Shown: positions 11,494 to 58,353 of the stretch, one piece after another
Position numbering within the stretch: position 1 is the first letter of the stretch
How the letters are laid out: each line of letters starts with the position of its first letter
Assembly: GCF_965641715.1 (NCBI RefSeq)
Contig: NZ_OZ282453.1
DNA from: Escherichia coli
Lineage (GTDB): Bacteria; Pseudomonadota; Gammaproteobacteria; Enterobacterales; Enterobacteriaceae
Reading direction: 5' to 3' (one strand)
DNA: 64,000 bases
Notes under the pieces: model-generated
Seen by the model: the letters and a program-made list of their open reading frames with translations, nothing else
Database searches by the model: none
Told to the model about the DNA's origin: nothing
Translations under genes and position numbers: made by a program

Positions 11494-11570
<77 letters not shown>

Positions 11571-11603
11571 TCACCGTACTGCTTTTACTTCATCAAATTT
11601 GAT

Positions 11604-11680
<77 letters not shown>

Positions 11681-11713
11681 TCACCGTACTGCTTTACTTC
11701 ATCAAATTTTAAT

Positions 11714-11790
<77 letters not shown>

Positions 11791-13124: not shown

Positions 13125-13310
13125 ATATGACAGGGTGAGGGGTAACCTCACATCCTGATTATTGACTAAGTGCGCGTTGTTCATGCCGGATGCGGCGTGA
13201 ACGCCTTATCCGGCCTACAAATCATGCAAATCCAAAATATTGCAGGAGTTATGTAGGCCTGATAAGCGTAGCGCATCAGGCATTTATGCGTTTAGGGTGA
13301 GGGATAACCT
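13125..13310. repeat. BIME-like cluster of REP palindromes between mltA and tcdA
   Basis: gccggatgcggcgtgaacgccttatccggcctac and gtaggcctgataagcgtagcgcatcaggc REP units flanked by gtgaggggtaacctcac-type palindromes. Confidence 0.6.
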
Positions 13311-16275: not shown

Positions 16276-16481
16276 AAAAAAAAGCACCGCAATTAGGCGG
16301 TGCTACATTAATCACTATGGACAGACAGGGTAAATGTACAGGAAGTGAAAAAAGGTAGCTTTGCTACCATGGTCTGAATCGCAGACCAATTGCAAACACA
16401 ACAACACAACATCACAACCGTAAGCCAAAAGTTCACCAGAACACGCATTCCGACAAAACTTTTCGTTCCGGCTCAGGAAGT
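16276..16481 (-). ncRNA. gcvB: GcvB small regulatory RNA (Hfq-dependent, represses amino-acid/peptide transporters)
   Basis: Minus-strand sequence starts ACTTCCTGAGCCGGAACGAAAAG, contains the GU-rich TGTGATGTTGTGTTGTTGTGTT region, and ends in a GC hairpin plus U8; divergent from gcvA. Confidence 0.85.
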
Positions 16482-33896: not shown

Positions 33897-34442
33897 GTGG
33901 ACGATTTGACCGCACAAGCCCTGAAAGATTTTACTGCACGCTACTGCGATGCGTGGCATGAAGAGCATAAAAGCTGGCCGTTAAGTGAGGAACTGTACGG
34001 CGTTCCTTCACCGTGCATTATTTCAACTACTGAAGATGCCGTATACTGGCAACCCCAGCCGTTTACCGGGGAACAAAATGTAAACGCGGTTGAACGCGCT
34101 TTTGATATTGTGATACAACCCACAATTCATACCTTTTATACGACTCAGTTTGCCGGGGATATGCACGCGCAGTTTGGCGATATCAAACTGACATTGCTGC
34201 AAACCTGGAGTGAAGACGACTTCCGTCGGGTGCAGGAAAATCTGATTGGTCATCTGGTGACTCAGAAAAGGCTAAAACTGCCACCCACGCTATTTATCGC
34301 GACGCTGGAAGAAGAGTTAGAGGTCATCTCGGTGTGTAATCTCTCCGGTGAAGTGTGTAAAGAGACGCTGGGAACACGTAAACGGACGCATTTAGCCTCA
34401 AATCTTGCGGAATTCCTTAATCAACTTAAGCCTCTTCTGTAA
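33897..34442 (+). CDS. syd: SecY-interacting protein Syd
   Basis: 181 aa recognised as Syd. Confidence 0.9.
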
Positions 34443-34461
34443 TCCAAATACCCCATCTGGT

Positions 34462-34479
34462 TGTGAGAGATCTCTTACA
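34462..34479. promoter_or_regulatory. UvrY (GacA-type) response-regulator box upstream of csrB
   Basis: TGTGAGAGATCTCTTACA, an 18-bp near-perfect inverted repeat about 175-190 bp upstream of the csrB 5' end. Confidence 0.65.
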
Positions 34480-34652
34480 GACTCTGTAGGAGATCGCCAG
34501 GAAATAAGCGAATACTTAAAAAGATAAGAATCGTTATTTTCATTTAAAAACAACATGTTGCTTGTTAATTCCTAACTTTCATATGAAATTTTCCTTAAGG
34601 CATTGTCTGTAAGCGCCTTGTAAGACTTCGCGAAAAAGACGATTCTATCTTC

Positions 34653-35019
34653 GTCGACAGGGAGTCAGACAACGAAGTGAACATCAGGATGATGACACTT
34701 CTGAAGGACACACCAGGATGGTGTTTCAGGGAAAGGCTTCTGGATGAAGCGAAGAGGATGACGCAGGACGCGTTAAAGGACACCTCCAGGATGGAGAATG
34801 AGAACCGGTCAGGATGATTCGGTGGGTCAGGAAGGCCAGGGACACTTCAGGATGAAGTATCACATCGGGGTGGTGTGAGCAGGAAGCAATAGTTCAGGAT
34901 GAACGATTGGCCGCAAGGCCAGAGGAAAAGTTGTCAAGGATGAGCAGGGAGCAACAAATGTAGCTGGAATGCTGCGAAACGAACCGGGAGCACTGTGAAT
35001 ACAGTGCTCCCTTTTTTTA
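34653..35019 (+). ncRNA. csrB: CsrB small RNA (CsrA-sequestering RNA)
   Basis: Starts GTCGACAGGGAGTCAGACAACGAAGTGAAC; about 18 GGA-containing CAGGAUG-like motifs; ends in hairpin gggagcactg...cagtgctccc plus T7. Confidence 0.9.
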
Positions 35020-35063
35020 TTCCTGCTATCCTTCGCGGCAGTTTTTCTTATTGAGGTTGCTTT

Positions 35064-35393
35064 ATGACCACTCATGACCGCGTTCGTCTCCAGTTGCAGG
35101 CGCTTGAAGCGTTACTGCGTGAACATCAGCACTGGCGAAACGATGTACCCCAGCCGCATCAATTTAATAGTACCCAACCGTTCTTTATGGACACCATGGA
35201 ACCACTGGAGTGGTTGCAGTGGGTGCTGATCCCGCGAATGCACGATTTGTTAAATAACAACCAGCCGTTACCGGGCGCTTTTGCCGTTGCTCCCTATTAT
35301 GAAATGGCGCTGGCGACGGACCATCCGCAACGCGCGCTTATTCTGGCTGAGTTGGAAAAACTGGATGCTCTTTTTGCGGATGATGCGAGCTAA
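35064..35393 (+). CDS. yqcC: DUF446 family protein
   Basis: 109 aa; stop overlaps truC start. Confidence 0.85.
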   Translation: MTTHDRVRLQLQALEALLREHQHWRNDVPQPHQFNSTQPFFMDTMEPLEWLQWVLIPRMHDLLNNNQPLPGAFAVAPYYEMALATDHPQRALILAELEKLDALFADDAS

Positions 35394-41363: not shown

Positions 41364-44120
41364 TTACCCGAGAATTTTGCTGGCTTCGCGCGCGACATTA
41401 TCCATCTCGTCCAACAGTTCCAGCAGCTCCGGCTCCAAATCTTCTTCTTTAGTACCGCTACGTAGCTGTTGTTCGATCAGTTGGCAGAGATTCTTCATAC
41501 GCGGCACACCGCTATAGCCGCAACTGCCATGCAGTTTATGAATCAAATCAACCAGGCCTTCCGGGTTTTCTCCAACCAGCTGTTCCTCAACTTTGTTGCG
41601 AACTTCAGGCAGGAAATCGAGTAACATTTGCAGCATATCGCGCGCTAAATCGGTTTTTCCTGCTGCCTGGCGTAGTGCCAGTTGCCAGTCGAGGGTCGCA
41701 TTCGGGTTCACCACAATTTCGTTGACTTCAGGCGTCACGACGCGAGACGAAATACCGCTGCCAGGCTTGTAGCGCAACAGCAAATTATGCAATCGCTCTT
41801 CTTCAATCGGTTTCGCCAGATAATCGCTCATCCCTGCGCCAAGCAGCTTCTCTTTTTGCCCGGCCATTGCATGCGCCGTTACCGCGATAACCGGCGTTTG
41901 TTGCTGATGGGGGAGCTGGTGGATGAGTTCGCAGGCCCGAATGCCATCCATGTCAGGCATTTGAATATCCATTAAGATCAAATCGAACGGCATCTGTTTC
42001 GCCCGTTCAACCGCCTGATGCCCGCTATCGCAAAGTTCCACATGTTGCACCATATCTTCCAGCAATGCGCCGATAAGTTTCAGGTTAGCGGGGTTGTCAT
42101 CAACCGCCATGACTGTCATTGCCAGCTTACTTTCATCGGTTACAGGCAAAAGCGTGTTTTGTTTGTGATGACAAAATTCCGTCAGGGCAGGCAACAGGCG
42201 CGTAGGTGTTAATGGTTTCAGCAGACACGCGCCGATACCATCTTGCTTAAGTTTTTCAGCATTGACTTGTGCATGGCAAGGAAGTGCCAGCATCAGGAAA
42301 TCGGTCATCGATACCGCTTTCGCTAATCGCTCATGTTGCATTGTTAGCGGCTCGCGGAAGGTCACCGCGATGCCTAACAACATCATGTCGTAATGCGCGG
42401 GAGGCAGCGCGGAGAACGTTGGGCTATAAACCACTTCCAGCGGCGTTTCACTTAAAATATCCAGCGTGCATTGCGCTGCTGCGGAGTTTGGTTCGACATA
42501 GGCCAGGCGTTTACCGGCGAGGCACTGGGTGGATGGCCCTTCAATAATAATGTTCGGGTTCAGATCGAGATTAATGTGGAACCAGAAAGTTGAACCGCGA
42601 TTCGGCTGGCTATGGAACGAAATATCGCCGCCCATTTCATTAACCAGTTTTTGTGTAATCACCAGCCCCAGCCCGGTGCCACCATGACGGCGGGAAATAC
42701 TGGCATCAGCCTGTCGGAAGGCCTGGAATAAGCGCGATTGATCGCGTTCAGGAATACCAATGCCGGTATCCCGAATCTGCACTTCAATCTGCACTTTGGT
42801 ATTACTCAGCGCACGTTTTTCTACCAGAATATCAATGTTGCCATTCTCGGTGAATTTAATTGCATTCCCCACCAGGTTAGTGATGATTTGCTGTAATCGC
42901 AGTGGGTCGCCGATCACGTTATCAGGCACGTCGCTCTTAATATTGAGCGTCAGTTCCAGACCTTTATCGTGAGAAGAATGTGCCAGCAGGGTAACGACTT
43001 CATCCAGCGTGCTGCGTAGTGGGAATGGAATACTTTCCAGAATCAGCTTACCTGCTTCCAGTTTCGAGAAGTCGAGAACATCATTAATAATTGCCAGCAA
43101 ATTATTTGCCGAACGTTCAATCGTATTCAGGTGATCGCGCTGCGTTGGTGTTAATTCTGTTTTCAGCGTCAGGCGGGTAAAGCCAATAACACCATTCAGT
43201 GGTGTACGCAGCTCGTGTGACATATTTGCCAGAAACTCGGATTTAATACGCGCCGCTTCCTGGGCGCGCTTTTTCGCCAGATCCAACTCAACGTTCTGAA
43301 TTTCCATCTGCTCCAGCGTTTCACGCAGATCGGACGTCGCCTGGTCGATATTGTGCTGCATCTCTTCGTGATAAGCAGCCAGCGACATTGCCATCGAGTT
43401 GATACCGTTTTTCAGCATATCCAGCTCGCCGAGCATAAATCCTTCCACCCGGCTGTCGAGTTGCCCGCGACGGATGCGGTCGACGGTATTCACCATGTTG
43501 CGAATCGGACCGGTTACATCGCGCATTAAGCGCCAGCCAAAAATAAGCGCAATACCGATACAAAACAGCATCATCACGCTGGAAATAAAGATCTCTTTAT
43601 ATTGCTGCAAGCGAACCGATTTAAGATCCAGCTCCAGCGCAATATATCCCAGCATATTTTGACTATTTTTGGCATCGCTACTGGGCGATTCGTCGGGGGA
43701 GTAACTCTCAGAAATAATCGGCGTGCGGAGGATCATAATATCGCCGTCACGAGTGACAGTGAGCTGGCGAGGAAACGGCACGTTGCTGCCGAGCTGCATA
43801 GATGAGGGATCAAGATGAAAATTGGAGGTGACAAAGAGTCGGTTATTTTCATCATAAACCGAAATCGCGCGAACAATATCGGAATGGCGACGATGCAGTA
43901 CGCTTATTAACTGACCGATAGATTCGCGATTTTGCAAGCTCATGCCATATTCAGTAGAAACTGCAAGCGGCTCAATAATGCTGGCACCGGCATCTTCCAG
44001 TTGACGCTGCAAGTCGTTATAGCGATGCACGACGAAAAAGATACTCAGCAATAAACCAATAAGGACGGTCGGTGCCAGGATCAGAATCATCATGCGTGCG
44101 CGCAGGCTGTAGTTGGTCAT
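41364..44120 (-). CDS. barA: Hybrid sensor histidine kinase BarA (HAMP-HisKA-HATPase-REC-HPt)
   Basis: 918 aa recognised as BarA. Confidence 0.95.
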
Positions 44121-52594: not shown

Positions 52595-53488
52595 TTACCA
52601 GCGACCGGACGCGCCGCCACCGCCAGAAGAACCGCCCCCGCCGCTAAATCCGCCGCCACTTGAGCCTCCACCGGAAGAGGATGAAGAAGAACCTTTTCTT
52701 GAAGCTCTATCTTTACTGAGTTTTTTGTATTTGGCGCGTAGCTTTTTATTGACGATAAGCCAAAAAATAACCAGTGGTACGATCGCAAAAGGCGTTAACA
52801 TACCGCAGGCAACGATTAAATTGGTCCATGGTCCTGGCTCGGCAACATAGAGGAATACCATCCCGTAAATGGCGCCAGTGAGAGTGATCCAGGGTAAATT
52901 CGACGGATCGGTAAAAACAATAAAATATGAAAGTACCGCCAGCAATATAATTACAGCAAGCGATAATGGAATAGGGGGATTGATACTGTAATAATCCCCC
53001 CTGTCTTCCGGTAATTCACCATTCAACAGAAGCGCGCCGATATTTTCGCTTGCCAGTGTTAATCCACCCATCAGGTCGTCACTTTTGAAGGCAGGGATCA
53101 ATATATCCCTGATAATCTTCGCCGCTTGCAGGTCGGTTACCACCCCTTCCAGCCCGTAGCCAACCTCAATACGAACAGCATGATCCTCCCTGGCAACCAG
53201 AAGTAAAATACCATCGTTTCTCTGCTTATCTCCCAGTTTCCAGCTATCAAAAACCCTTGTAGCATATTGTTCAATGGAATCGTCTCCGGTGGACGGCACT
53301 ACTAATACAGCGACCTGCGCCCGTGTTTTATGTGTAATATCCTGCAGTTGCTGTGTCAGTGATTGTTGTTCAGACGTGCTTAACGTACCAGTAATATCGG
53401 TCACCTGTTGGCGCAGCTCCGGCACAGCAATTTGCTGGGCAAGCCCGGGAAGGCTCCACAAAGCAAGTAGAATAAAGATTAAGCGCAT
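52595..53488 (-). CDS. TPM-domain membrane protein, YgcG family, paralog 1 (promoter-distal)
   Basis: ORF track 52595-53500 begins at a non-ATG codon; likely ATG start at MRLIFILLALWSLPGLA (signal peptide); TPM fold motifs (LVVPSTGDDSIEQYATRVFDSWK, DGILLLVA, RIEVGYGLEG); C-terminal TM segments then Ser/Gly tail ...GGGSSGGGGASGRW. Confidence 0.8.
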   Translation of the reverse strand: MRLIFILLALWSLPGLAQQIAVPELRQQVTDITGTLSTSEQQSLTQQLQDITHKTRAQVAVLVVPSTGDDSIEQYATRVFDSWKLGDKQRNDGILLLVAREDHAVRIEVGYGLEGVVTDLQAAKIIRDILIPAFKSDDLMGGLTLASENIGALLLNGELPEDRGDYYSINPPIPLSLAVIILLAVLSYFIVFTDPSNLPWITLTGAIYGMVFLYVAEPGPWTNLIVACGMLTPFAIVPLVIFWLIVNKKLRAKYKKLSKDRASRKGSSSSSSGGGSSGGGFSGGGGSSGGGGASGRW

Positions 53489-53493
53489 TACGA

Positions 53494-54642
53494 TCACCAA
53501 CGGCCGGATGAACCGCCGCCTCCTGAAGAACCGCCACCACCGCGGAAAGAATTCCTCGACGAAGAGCGAGAATGAGCATTACGATTCCCCGTTTTCCTGT
53601 TGCTTTTTTCTCCTGACCCCAGCTTAAGATTGCCAGTAAATTTGGCCACAATGATCAGCAGAACGATGCCAGCAATGGTTATTGGGCCGATAAAATGATC
53701 AATTAACCCAATAATTGTTGAGATGAATGCAATATCTTTATTACTGGCGAACACCAGGCACCATCCCACAATAATTATCAGCATCACGACAAACAATGAA
53801 TTTCGTCCTGATTCACGAACCTGCGGAGTCTTCTTTTGTTTTTTCACTTTAGCGTTTTTATTTTTTGGGGCCAGCATCATAGGAAATACGCGGCACAAAT
53901 TAAAAACTACCGCGAGACGCTGCTTGCAGGTTGTTGCTAACAATAAACTAAAACAAACGACCGATACCCGCCGAATGATGACATCGTCCTGAAAGGAGAA
54001 AAACCAGACCATAGGGGTAATCATCGATATCATCCATATGCCACGCCGTGGGCGGCTGGCAAATCGCCAGAGGACAACGATGGCAACGATCATCAGCAGT
54101 GTCCAGGCAAGACATGGCAGCGAACGTTGCGGATTAGCAAACAGATGATTGGCTAAAGCATCCAAAGGGCTAAGGTTCGCTTTGATATGGGTAAACTGTG
54201 CGATGCTTTCAATTCCGCCCGTTAATCCAGCAAAGAGATTGTTTTTTTCGAATTCTGGCTGCATATGGTAACGAACAATTTGCGCAGCTTGTTCCGGCGG
54301 CAACATCTCTTCCAGTCCATGTCCAATCTTCATTGACGCCAGCCCTTCCGGCCATACGACGAGAATTAAGATACCTTCGCCATATCGCTTCTCTCCAACG
54401 GGTTTCCAGTGATATACCCCGTATCTCTGCGAGGCTGCAAGTTTAATGTTTTTGCCCCCTGTGGTCGGCGTAACCAACACGGCCACCTGGAAGTGGTTTT
54501 GCTGCTCGAGAGTCTGTAATTGTTGAGTTAAAGCAGTTTGTTCTTCTGTCGTTAATGTCCCGGTTAAGTCAGTCACTGAAGGCAATCGTTCAGCGAATAC
54601 CTGAAAACCGCATAGCATCAGAAGTAAGAGAAAAATACGCAT
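53494..54642 (-). CDS. TPM-domain membrane protein, divergent paralog 2 with long polytopic C-terminal region
   Basis: 382 aa; signal peptide; TPM-like N-terminal domain; several hydrophobic segments; tail ...RGGGGSSGGGGSSGRW; 5-nt gap to paralog 1 start. Confidence 0.75.
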   Translation of the reverse strand: MRIFLLLLMLCGFQVFAERLPSVTDLTGTLTTEEQTALTQQLQTLEQQNHFQVAVLVTPTTGGKNIKLAASQRYGVYHWKPVGEKRYGEGILILVVWPEGLASMKIGHGLEEMLPPEQAAQIVRYHMQPEFEKNNLFAGLTGGIESIAQFTHIKANLSPLDALANHLFANPQRSLPCLAWTLLMIVAIVVLWRFASRPRRGIWMISMITPMVWFFSFQDDVIIRRVSVVCFSLLLATTCKQRLAVVFNLCRVFPMMLAPKNKNAKVKKQKKTPQVRESGRNSLFVVMLIIIVGWCLVFASNKDIAFISTIIGLIDHFIGPITIAGIVLLIIVAKFTGNLKLGSGEKSNRKTGNRNAHSRSSSRNSFRGGGGSSGGGGSSGRW

Positions 54643-54656
54643 ATCAATTCCTTTTG

Positions 54657-55550
54657 TTACCAGCGCCCGGAAGCGCCACCGCCACCAGATGAACCGCCAC
54701 CACCGCTGAAATTGTCATTGTTGAATGAAGAGGATGACGATGATGAATAGTGGGAGGAAGAATTGCTTCTTGTATGGCGTGATGGCTGGTTGACATCACG
54801 CATCAAATCCCGAACTTTTTTGCCGAAGGGGGTAAAAGCGATGGCGACAGCCAGGAACGGTGTGGCGAAGCAGAGTAATGTTGCGAGTACTCCCCAGCTT
54901 CCGCTGAAGCCTGCTATAGGTAAAACAAAGGCCAGTACAATAGCTGCGAAGCAAATTACTCCCAGCGTTTTGATATATCCTCTGGCAGAAATAAACGTCA
55001 GTACTATCGCCCAGACTAACAATGCCCACCAACCGCTAAAGGGCAAAGGGTGATCGGTCGGTGTTATCGTTGCTAAATTATTCCCCGTAAGACGACTTTC
55101 AATATCGCTGATCCCCTTTTGTAAACCGCCAGCCAGGTCGCCTTTTTTAAATGCAGGAATAATACTGTTGCGAATAATTTTCCCGGACTGTGCATCCGTA
55201 ATAATACCTTCCAGCCCGTAACCGATTTCAATACGCACGGTATGATCCTGCCAGGCGACTAACAGTAGAACGCCATCATCACGGTCTTTATCACCCGGTT
55301 TCCAGCTATCGAATACCCGCGTTGCGTACTGCTCGATGGTTTCATCGCCTGTTGTATCAACCACTAACACGACCAACTGTGCGTGGTTTTTTTGCGTCAG
55401 GGCTTTAATCTGGTTGGTCAGGGTGTTTACTTCGCTGTTTGTTAATGTGCCGGTTAAGTCATTCACATACTTGGGGGATTCAGGTACTGGAATTTGTGTG
55501 GCAAACACAGATGAACAGAAGAAAGCCATAAGGAAGATAAAATTTCGCAT
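54657..55550 (-). CDS. TPM-domain membrane protein, YgcG family, paralog 3
   Basis: ORF track 54657-55580; likely start at MRNFIFLMAFFCSSVFA (55550); shares IEQYATRVFDSWK and RIEIGYGLEG blocks with paralog 1; tail ...SGGGGSSGGGGASGRW. Confidence 0.8.
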   Translation of the reverse strand: MRNFIFLMAFFCSSVFATQIPVPESPKYVNDLTGTLTNSEVNTLTNQIKALTQKNHAQLVVLVVDTTGDETIEQYATRVFDSWKPGDKDRDDGVLLLVAWQDHTVRIEIGYGLEGIITDAQSGKIIRNSIIPAFKKGDLAGGLQKGISDIESRLTGNNLATITPTDHPLPFSGWWALLVWAIVLTFISARGYIKTLGVICFAAIVLAFVLPIAGFSGSWGVLATLLCFATPFLAVAIAFTPFGKKVRDLMRDVNQPSRHTRSNSSSHYSSSSSSSFNNDNFSGGGGSSGGGGASGRW

Positions 55551-55563
55551 AGAACTTCCCCGC

Positions 55564-56184
55564 TTAATGAGCATTAGCATTCTGGCTAAAATCTATTGTT
55601 GGGGCTTTACTTACTGCGGCGACATCATCCGGTAAATAATTTTTCTTTGGCGTGTAATCCATGACCTTTGCGGTTAATACAGCGGGGAATTTGCGGATAG
55701 TGACATTATATTGTTCAATGGCTTTAATATATCTTCCTCGCGCAACGGCAATTCTATTTTCACTTCCTTCGAGCTGTACCATTAAGTTTTGATAGAGCTC
55801 TTGAGCCTTTAACTCAGGGTAACGCTCACTAATTATCGTTAACTGACCGAGAGTGCGAGTCACCTGCGCCTGGGCCTGTTGCCAGGCTTGTAATTTTTGT
55901 GCATCTCCGGGAGCTTGCTGAAGATCGCTGCTGGCGCGATTAGCCTGGCTACGAGCCAATGTTACGGCTTCCAAAACGTCTTTTTCATGGTTGGAATAAC
56001 CTTTAATACTGGCGACAAGATTAGGAATAAGATCGGCGCGACGTTGATATTGATTTAATACCTCAGACCAGGAGGCGTTAACCTGCTCATCATAGGTTTG
56101 AATATCGTTATATCCACAGCCTGATAAATTGAAAATAAATATAATTACGATGAATATCCTGAGCATGTTTAAATCCTTTTTCAT
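55564..56184 (-). CDS. lemA: LemA-family lipoprotein
   Basis: 206 aa; lipobox NLSGC; LemA blocks QRRADLIPNLV, ERYPELKA, GSENRIAVARGRY; stop lies 13 nt upstream of TPM paralog 3 start. Confidence 0.8.
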   Translation of the reverse strand: MKKDLNMLRIFIVIIFIFNLSGCGYNDIQTYDEQVNASWSEVLNQYQRRADLIPNLVASIKGYSNHEKDVLEAVTLARSQANRASSDLQQAPGDAQKLQAWQQAQAQVTRTLGQLTIISERYPELKAQELYQNLMVQLEGSENRIAVARGRYIKAIEQYNVTIRKFPAVLTAKVMDYTPKKNYLPDDVAAVSKAPTIDFSQNANAH

Positions 56185-57348: not shown

Positions 57349-58353
57349 GAGTTCCCCGCGCCAGCGGGGATAAACCGGGCGACCGGCAGGCGGCCTATGC
57401 GTTTTTCACGAGTTCCCCGCGCCAGCGGGGATAAACCGGGGCATTAGAATAACTTAAATGGAAAAAGAAAGAGTTCCCCGCGCCAGCGGGGATAAACCGG
57501 CCTTATCTCTGCTTGGATTCTCTGCTGATGTGAGTTCCCCGCGCCAGCGGGGATAAACCGCGGCGCACACGTTGTATTTGTGCTGCCTATGCGAGTTCCC
57601 CGCGCCAGCGGGGATAAACCGCCCACCAGCGCGTTTTTTGCCGGGGCCATAGTGAGTTCCCCGCGCCAGCGGGGATAAACCGGCAATGCTCGTACGCCGT
57701 CTCACTCCGCGTGAGAGTTCCCCGCGCCAGCGGGGATAAACCGCGGGGGCGCGGGGTGTGGACGCATTCACAGCAGAGTTCCCCGCGCCAGCGGGGATAA
57801 ACCGTATATGCAGTGCTGACAGACCGGGGGGCGCAAGAGTTCCCCGCGCCAGCGGGGATAAACCGGCAACGCAGGAACCGCAGGCGGTTCGTCATCTGAG
57901 TTCCCCGCGCCAGCGGGGATAAACCGCTTGCCGCGCCAGGGTATTTTTGTGTGGTCGTGAGTTCCCCGCGCCAGCGGGGATAAACCGTCCGCAACAACTC
58001 AGAGAACCAGACACCAAGCGAGTTCCCCGCGCCAGCGGGGATAAACCGTTTCGCCGCCGGGAAAATTTATATTAACGTTGGAGTTCCCCGCGCCAGCGGG
58101 GATAAACCGCGAAGCACGTCGGGGACCGTAAGGCGTTTGAAGAGTTCCCCGCGCCAGCGGGGATAAACCGCAATCCACGCCGAAGCGCTGGAAATGGAAA
58201 AAGAGTTCCCCGCGCCAGCGGGGATAAACCGTTTACCTGCTCGGTGATATCGTCCTGCAAATCGAGTTCCCCGCGCCAGCGGGGATAAACCGGGTACAAA
58301 AGAGGCCCCATTCTGGCAGGGCTCAAGTTCCCCGCGCCAGCGGGGATAAACCA
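57349..58353 (+). CRISPR. Type I-E CRISPR array: 17 repeats of 29 bp, 16 spacers of 32 bp
   Basis: Repeat GAGTTCCCCGCGCCAGCGGGGATAAACCG with exact 61-bp period from 57349; terminal repeat degenerate (AAGTTCCCCGCGCCAGCGGGGATAAACCA, 58325-58353); leader at the 57349 end sets + orientation. Confidence 0.97.

Follow-up and report, generated by a model that had tools for sequence, protein, structure and literature searches.

A K-12-like csrB locus, its UvrY box and the sensor kinase gene barA in a 64-kb window of Escherichia coli DNA

In this study we analysed a 64-kb window (the whole stretch of E. coli DNA under examination, 64,000 nucleotides) and conclude from sequence comparison that the syd-yqcC intergenic region within it almost certainly carries the native E. 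coli csrB gene, which should be the functional equivalent of its K-12 counterpart. Together with an upstream UvrY box and the sensor kinase gene barA, csrB represents a set of textbook parts of the Csr circuit in what are essentially their K-12 versions, and in this sense the components described here are already known. The sole lead beyond the textbook, and a mildly non-trivial one, is a lineage polymorphism at an IHF-like site in the spacer downstream of the box. The practical gain is mostly the correct annotation of csrB, which is annotated in K-12 MG1655 and in none of the RefSeq assemblies listed; the PGAP annotation of the matching RefSeq E. coli assemblies listed offers syd and yqcC, or 'none', in place of a csrB label, so that an Rfam scan is needed to label the gene.

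Such a scan, run over the 64-kb window at the gathering threshold, returned a full-length match to RF00018 (CsrB/RsmB; model positions 1-356 of 356) at 34662-35021 on the plus strand, scoring 384 bits against a gathering score of 71 (E = 1e-111), with no non-canonical pairs flagged. Alignment with K-12 csrB (b4408, 369 nt) places the gene at 34653-35021 (+), with 366 of 369 bases identical. The upstream ORF stops at 34442 and the downstream ORF starts at 35064; Pfam identifies these as Syd and YqcC/DUF446, and K-12 csrB likewise lies between syd and yqcC, in an intergenic region that is 621 bp long in both genomes and differs between them by seven substitutions. On a larger scale, positions 1-52,676 of the window are collinear with K-12 MG1655 2,959,176 to 2,906,502 in reverse orientation, at 98.7% identity. 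Megablast found the interval 34400-35100, annotated with syd and yqcC, in 5425 of 5426 complete E. coli genomes, and at least eight E. coli records among the matches listed are 100% identical to it. The full-length RF00018 match and the synteny with b4408 bear out the original prediction that this locus is csrB, and near-identity to the characterised K-12 RNA (PMC7652899, PMC5027483) suggests that its product would likewise bind and sequester CsrA.

Upstream of the gene, the 18-bp inverted repeat TGTGAGAGATCTCTTACA occurs as an exact match at 34462-34479. The repeat is self-complementary at eight of its nine pairs and is the only site in the window within three mismatches of this sequence (0.03 expected by chance). 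Measured from the K-12 csrB start (34653) it spans -191 to -174, in agreement with an earlier placing of about 175-190 bp upstream, and its centre bases, 34470/34471, correspond to -183/-182. In E. coli, UvrY-P has been footprinted with DNase I and mapped by ChIP-exo on an identical sequence with its centre at -183/-182 (Zere et al. 2015, PMC4682653), and this binding to the K-12 csrB box is BarA-dependent (PMC4682653). As both sequence and position equal those of the footprinted site, the earlier identification of a UvrY box is sustained, and we infer that TGTGAGAGATCTCTTACA is the UvrY-P (SirA/GacA-type) binding site of csrB. The box is invariant in seven E. coli alleles and, among the matches listed, in 30 Enterobacteriaceae loci. 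Of these 30, 29 have the box centre at -186 to -180 relative to the predicted start of csrB; Edwardsiella, at -171/-170, is the exception. Five bp downstream of the inverted repeat, at 34485-34493 (+), the sequence reads TGTAGGAGA, a half-site-like motif that has been reported as an extra element at this distance from the box for both E. coli and Salmonella csrB (PMC4682653). This element is kept as TGTRRGAGATCG across the Enterobacteriaceae in a promoter alignment of 30 loci among the matches listed, and in 41 of 89 loci, again among the matches listed, a forward TGTRAG lies 22-23 bp past the start of the box.

From the K-12 start position and cross-genus conservation we derived a putative weak sigma-70 promoter at 34618-34646 (+), composed of a -35 element TTGTAA (34618-34623), a 17-bp spacer and a -10 element GATTCT (34641-34646). 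A consensus scan of 34400-35100 returned no sigma-70 promoter at the scanner's threshold, which fits an activator-dependent promoter. The best-conserved blocks of this region in 30 Enterobacteriaceae promoters among the matches listed are CTTGTAAGAC, GATTCTAT and GTCGACA. Two direct copies of the half-site TGTAAG, 11 bp apart, are located at 34608-34613 (-45 to -40) and 34619-34624 (-34 to -29), the second overlapping the putative -35 element; both copies, together with the -35 and -10 elements, fall within the region from -56 to +25 in which ChIP-exo detected a downstream UvrY cross-link and in which the inverted repeat is not preserved (PMC4682653). When we asked whether such promoter-proximal half-sites are common to box-controlled sRNA promoters in general, TGTAAG showed a positional peak at +146 and +157 from the box start. 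Since this peak is present in only 24 of 89 loci among the matches listed, and since the Enterobacteriaceae alignment shows conservation of the TGTAAG at -35, the promoter-proximal motif may simply be the -35 element.

In the spacer between box and promoter, a consensus scan identifies an IHF-like site at 34548-34563 with one core mismatch per strand, and four SNPs relative to K-12 (34550, 34554, 34561 and 34572) lie within 23 bp. On both strands the K-12 spacer agrees perfectly with the IHF consensus WATCAANNNNTTR, in two overlapping matches (AATCAAAATGTTG and AATCAACATTTTG), whereas the window allele reads AAACAACATGTTG on the plus strand and AAGCAACATGTTG on the minus strand, each with a single core mismatch to WATCAANNNNTTR. 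At least five spacer haplotypes occur in E. coli, over an invariant UvrY box. The 90-bp allele of the window is a minority form, carried by 390 of 5425 complete genomes of the species (about 7%), O157:H7 among them, against 2871 of 5418 (about 53%) for the K-12 allele. In a seven-strain alignment a SNP hot-spot is apparent at the IHF-like site, to which we attach no P value, as the strains had been chosen for being divergent in the same 90-bp stretch. Natural variation clusters at this site and not in the box or the GGA motifs, which invites an allele-swap study.

According to PMC4682653, the DNA upstream of csrB has a putative IHF site that separates the two regions of UvrY cross-linking, and loss of IHF lowers CsrB about 10-fold in K-12. 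Set beside the rarity of the window allele and the K-12 allele's perfect consensus on both strands, this lends some substance to the idea that the window spacer weakens or re-registers IHF binding, such that csrB activation would be quantitatively unlike that of K-12 (less IHF-dependent, or lower); with the perfect matches absent, IHF dependence could differ in degree. We nonetheless regard such an effect as rather unlikely. The window keeps the bases of the element that are invariant in 30 Enterobacteriaceae promoters among the matches listed (the core CA and one T of TTR), and within that set several genera show AACA in place of ATCA at this position, for which reasons the change is probably tolerated. 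Single mismatches to the consensus are, moreover, generally tolerated by IHF. A broader proposal, which we put forward only as speculation and consider doubtful, is that spacer polymorphism may alter IHF-mediated looping and thereby create heritable differences between lineages in the conversion of the BarA-UvrY signal to CsrB; if true, the set-point of CsrA activity would vary between E. coli lineages. Our preferred reading, which no observation contradicts, is still that of a csrB locus equivalent to that of K-12.

The sensor kinase gene barA occupies 41364-44120, exactly the coordinates originally given for it, to which we add that the gene is on the minus strand. The 918-aa product matches K-12 BarA at every residue; it is the tripartite hybrid sensor kinase responsible for UvrY phosphorylation and contains all six expected Pfam domains in the order sCache_4, HAMP, HisKA, HATPase_c, Response_reg and Hpt, which confirms its assignment as the sensor gene; its neighbours, rlmD and gudD, are syntenic with K-12. 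A gap of 6.3 kb separates barA from csrB, with the same spacing in K-12, and the two genes are convergent and not co-transcribed. In both genomes the same six genes lie between them (yqcC, truC, yqcA, gudP, gudX and gudD). Synteny with K-12 indicates that uvrY, csrA, csrC and csrD are absent from the 64-kb window; with these components encoded elsewhere, the co-location of barA and csrB implies no cis relationship. The statement that the window holds both the input and the output of the circuit is thus accurate in that both genes are present, but their pairing is merely the K-12 gene order, and UvrY, the protein that binds the box, is encoded outside the window. We conclude that the co-location is inherited gene order and not a functional unit.

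In favour of a selected functional cluster, in which the sensor and output RNA genes are kept together, barA lies 1.7 to 9.5 kb downstream of csrB in five other species, in addition to the 6.3 kb of the window and K-12. Our linkage comparison, which is indicative only because its at least 120 loci reach unevenly downstream (lengths of 1.4 to 15 kb, many short on that side), places barA downstream of csrB, among the matches listed, by 1.7 kb in E. albertii (without the gud genes), 4.0 kb in Enterobacter sp. Ag1 and Cedecea neteri, 7.3 kb in Enterobacter asburiae and 9.5 kb in Pantoea stewartii. Against selection for proximity, however, the 7.4 to 10.9 kb on the downstream side of csrB showed no barA in Dickeya, two Rahnella species, Hafnia, Pseudocitrobacter and Pantoea sp. 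AS-PWVM4; the Vibrio, Photobacterium and Shewanella box loci yielded no close BarA orthologue, and three of them gave hybrid-kinase matches of only 30-40% identity (all among the matches listed). Furthermore, the six intervening genes are unrelated, the content between barA and csrB varies, the two genes are convergent and not co-transcribed, and the signal is relayed in trans by UvrY, whose gene is distant in K-12. Finally, the six genes of the Csr circuit form 15 pairs, so that finding one pair within 64 kb is not improbable (a rough estimate is ~0.3). A selected cluster is accordingly a reading to which we give very little credence, and inherited gene order is retained.

The RNA itself displays the features expected of a CsrA sponge. 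Its 369 nt carry 22 GGA motifs, 21 of them within the Rfam match, so that the earlier count of about 18 was too low; K-12 csrB has the same length and the same number, and 22 is also the published figure for CsrB (PMC7652899). Across the window, stretches of 369 nt contain on average 4.7 GGA (sd 2.5), and outside csrB the count reaches 14 at most. In dinucleotide-shuffled csrB the bare trinucleotide averages 15.2 (z = 2.7; 33 of 5000 shuffles reach 22), a weak and conservative comparison because the motifs themselves set the composition of the gene, and for this reason longer motifs and the genomic background were used to assess enrichment. On this basis AGGA occurs 14 times against 4.9 expected, CAGGA nine times against 1.3, AGGATG eight times against 0.4 and CAGGATG six times against ~0.1, with none of 5000 shuffles attaining the csrB counts of AGGA, CAGGA, GGATG, AGGATG or CAGGATG.

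The minimum free energy of the predicted fold is -119.9 kcal/mol, with a z-score of -4.46 relative to dinucleotide shuffles. In this fold nine GGA motifs sit wholly in hairpin loops (1.6 expected at random; none of 10,000 permutations reach nine) and 17 are wholly unpaired, with a mean unpaired probability of 0.81 for GGA bases and 0.35 for other bases. The Rfam consensus structure distributes 21 motifs over hairpin loops (11), single-stranded linkers (8) and stems (2), with GGA-bearing loops in 11 of its 12 hairpins; the remaining hairpin is the terminator, which contains one of the two stem motifs, site 22, also taken as non-functional in PMC5027483. About 90% of the motifs are therefore predicted to be single-stranded and half to lie in hairpin loops. 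The expectation that most would be found in hairpin loops is accordingly in need of correction: about half are in loops proper, and most of the others lie in linkers (19 of 21 in one or the other). We looked for the two outcomes that would speak against the original prediction, motifs unenriched relative to shuffled sequence or outside predicted loops, and observed neither. That the stretch is a chance purine-rich or coding segment with no structured sRNA could appeal to the moderate significance of bare GGA, but is effectively ruled out by the covariance-model match (E = 1e-111), the fold z-score of -4.46 and the enrichment of longer motifs (six CAGGATG against 0.11 expected, with 0 of 5000 shuffles having as many), and is further opposed by an intrinsic terminator and by the shortness of the overlapping ORFs (71 aa at most).

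Three substitutions, C52A, A307U and G340A, distinguish the RNA from K-12 csrB. The first turns CAGGA into AAGGA and keeps the GGA, the second falls between GGA sites 20 and 21, and the third converts a G.U pair of the K-12 terminator stem into A-U, giving the window the stronger stem. A terminator scan places this intrinsic terminator at 34986-35018 (+), with an 11-bp GC-rich stem (GGGAGCACTGT / ACAGTGCTCCC), a 4-nt loop and a T7 run. Directly 5' of it, at 34977-34985 (+), lies the unstructured segment containing the RNase E 'necessary cleavage site' described for CsrB along with its protection by GGA sites 20 and 21 (PMC5027483). Mapped from the numbering of that study, A327 and A331 correspond to 34979 and 34983; the segment is identical to that of K-12, and the protecting sites 20 (34948) and 21 (34966) are intact.

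Taken with published work, these features are consistent with the following scheme, in which protein binding, activation, sequestration and decay are drawn from the literature and the sequence identities, positions, motif counts, predicted structure and synteny come from the present analysis. BarA, whose gene lies 6.3 kb away on the other strand, would autophosphorylate and hand its phosphate to UvrY, encoded elsewhere; UvrY-P would bind the 18-bp repeat centred at -183/-182, and IHF would bend the spacer, bringing UvrY-P to the weak sigma-70 promoter and leading to transcription of csrB. The resulting 369-nt RNA would offer about 20 single-stranded GGA motifs, half in short hairpin loops, which would bind CsrA dimers and keep CsrA off its mRNA targets.

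Several other features of the window were recorded. Next to gcvA, as in K-12, is the sRNA gene for GcvB at 16276-16481 (-) (RF00022, 197 bits); three tandem tRNA genes at 11497-11790 (-) correspond to K-12 metZ, metW and metV (initiator tRNA-Met), and a match to the sRNA ES036 (CssrF; RF02751) is present at 13218-13260 (+), with 46.5 bits against a gathering score of 37.6. A block at 52595-56184 (-) that is absent from K-12 adjoins eno, in place of K-12 ygcG/yqcG, and encodes three TPM-domain proteins (301, 382 and 307 aa) and a LemA-family protein (206 aa). In the queE-ygcE interval, at 57349-58353, there is a type I-E-style CRISPR array of 17 repeats of GAGTTCCCCGCGCCAGCGGGGATAAACCG with a 61-bp period; the region is only about 90% alignable to K-12, and its spacer content therefore differs. 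Of 5425 E. coli genomes, 584 have a match covering at least 80% of the segment 52400-58900, within which both the TPM/LemA block and the array lie.

To place the UvrY box in a wider taxonomic context, 100,044 species genomes were scanned for the core TGTRAGAGATCTCTYACA, giving at least 120 loci which, among the matches listed, come from Enterobacterales, Vibrionaceae, Shewanella, Halomonadaceae, Alcanivorax and Kangiellaceae. In loci of Vibrio, Photobacterium and Shewanella among the matches listed, GGA-dense regions follow an exact copy of TGTRAGAGATCTCTYACA. With GGA-dense defined as at least 18 motifs in 300 nt (a density reached by 0.9% of background windows, whose mean is 3.5), such a region flanks the box on one side in 90 of 125 occurrences in other Gammaproteobacteria among the matches listed, and the distance from box centre to first GGA has a median of 185 nt (interquartile range 175-198). 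The survey reproduces the known architecture of GacA/UvrY box and sponge RNA, and adds nothing new to it.

Some individual loci from this survey deserve mention. Four Photobacterium loci (L034, L069, L080 and L110) and one of Shewanella atlantica (L076) have a pair of UvrY-type boxes on a single contig, separated by 500-1640 bp; the spacing is 500-790 bp in four of the five, and a GGA-dense stretch follows each box in most. These loci look like tandemly duplicated csrB-like genes, consistent with csrB duplications published for Vibrio (PMC6262261), and in several Vibrio genomes the box is found at two or three separate loci. Two Photobacterium ORFs (L081 8182-9627 and L121 2413-3162) within ~1 kb of a UvrY-type box share 31-40% identity with the BarA kinase core, and are probably other hybrid sensor kinases. 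An exact box on a contig labelled as an uncultured Porphyromonadaceae (Bacteroidota) MAG (L051 14541-14558) has no more than 11 GGA in its vicinity; the match may be due to chance or to mis-binning of the contig.

Among known systems, the GacS/GacA-RsmX/Y/Z pathway of Pseudomonas and the VarS/VarA-CsrB/C/D pathway of Vibrio share the overall logic of the locus, in which a hybrid kinase acts through a FixJ-type regulator and a palindromic box (TGTAAG-N6-CTTACA type) on a GGA-rich sponge RNA. They differ in the sequences and sizes of their sRNAs, in having several paralogues and in having no barA orthologue nearby. Within E. coli, CsrC (RF00084, clan CL00106) is another GGA-rich sponge for CsrA that UvrY activates, and it too has an upstream inverted repeat, at a comparable distance; it is, however, shorter, with fewer GGA motifs, a weaker palindrome (TGTGAGACATTGCCGATA), no IHF requirement and a location elsewhere on the chromosome, and the RNA of the window matches CsrB and not CsrC in Rfam. 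Closer still is csrB of Salmonella enterica, which has the same 18-bp repeat (there the SirA site, centred at -182/-181), together with the TGTAGGAGA element and a putative IHF site between box and promoter (PMC4682653). The Salmonella spacer sequence diverges, and the matches listed include no Salmonella locus.

The closest counterpart is csrB of E. coli K-12 MG1655, the gene reportedly described by Liu et al. in 1997. The window shares with it the locus, the length of the intergenic region and of the RNA, the number of GGA motifs, the TGTAGGAGA element, the RNase E site, an identical box at -183/-182 and an identical BarA encoded in the same relative place. The difference between the two amounts to seven substitutions, three in the RNA and four in the spacer at the IHF-like site.
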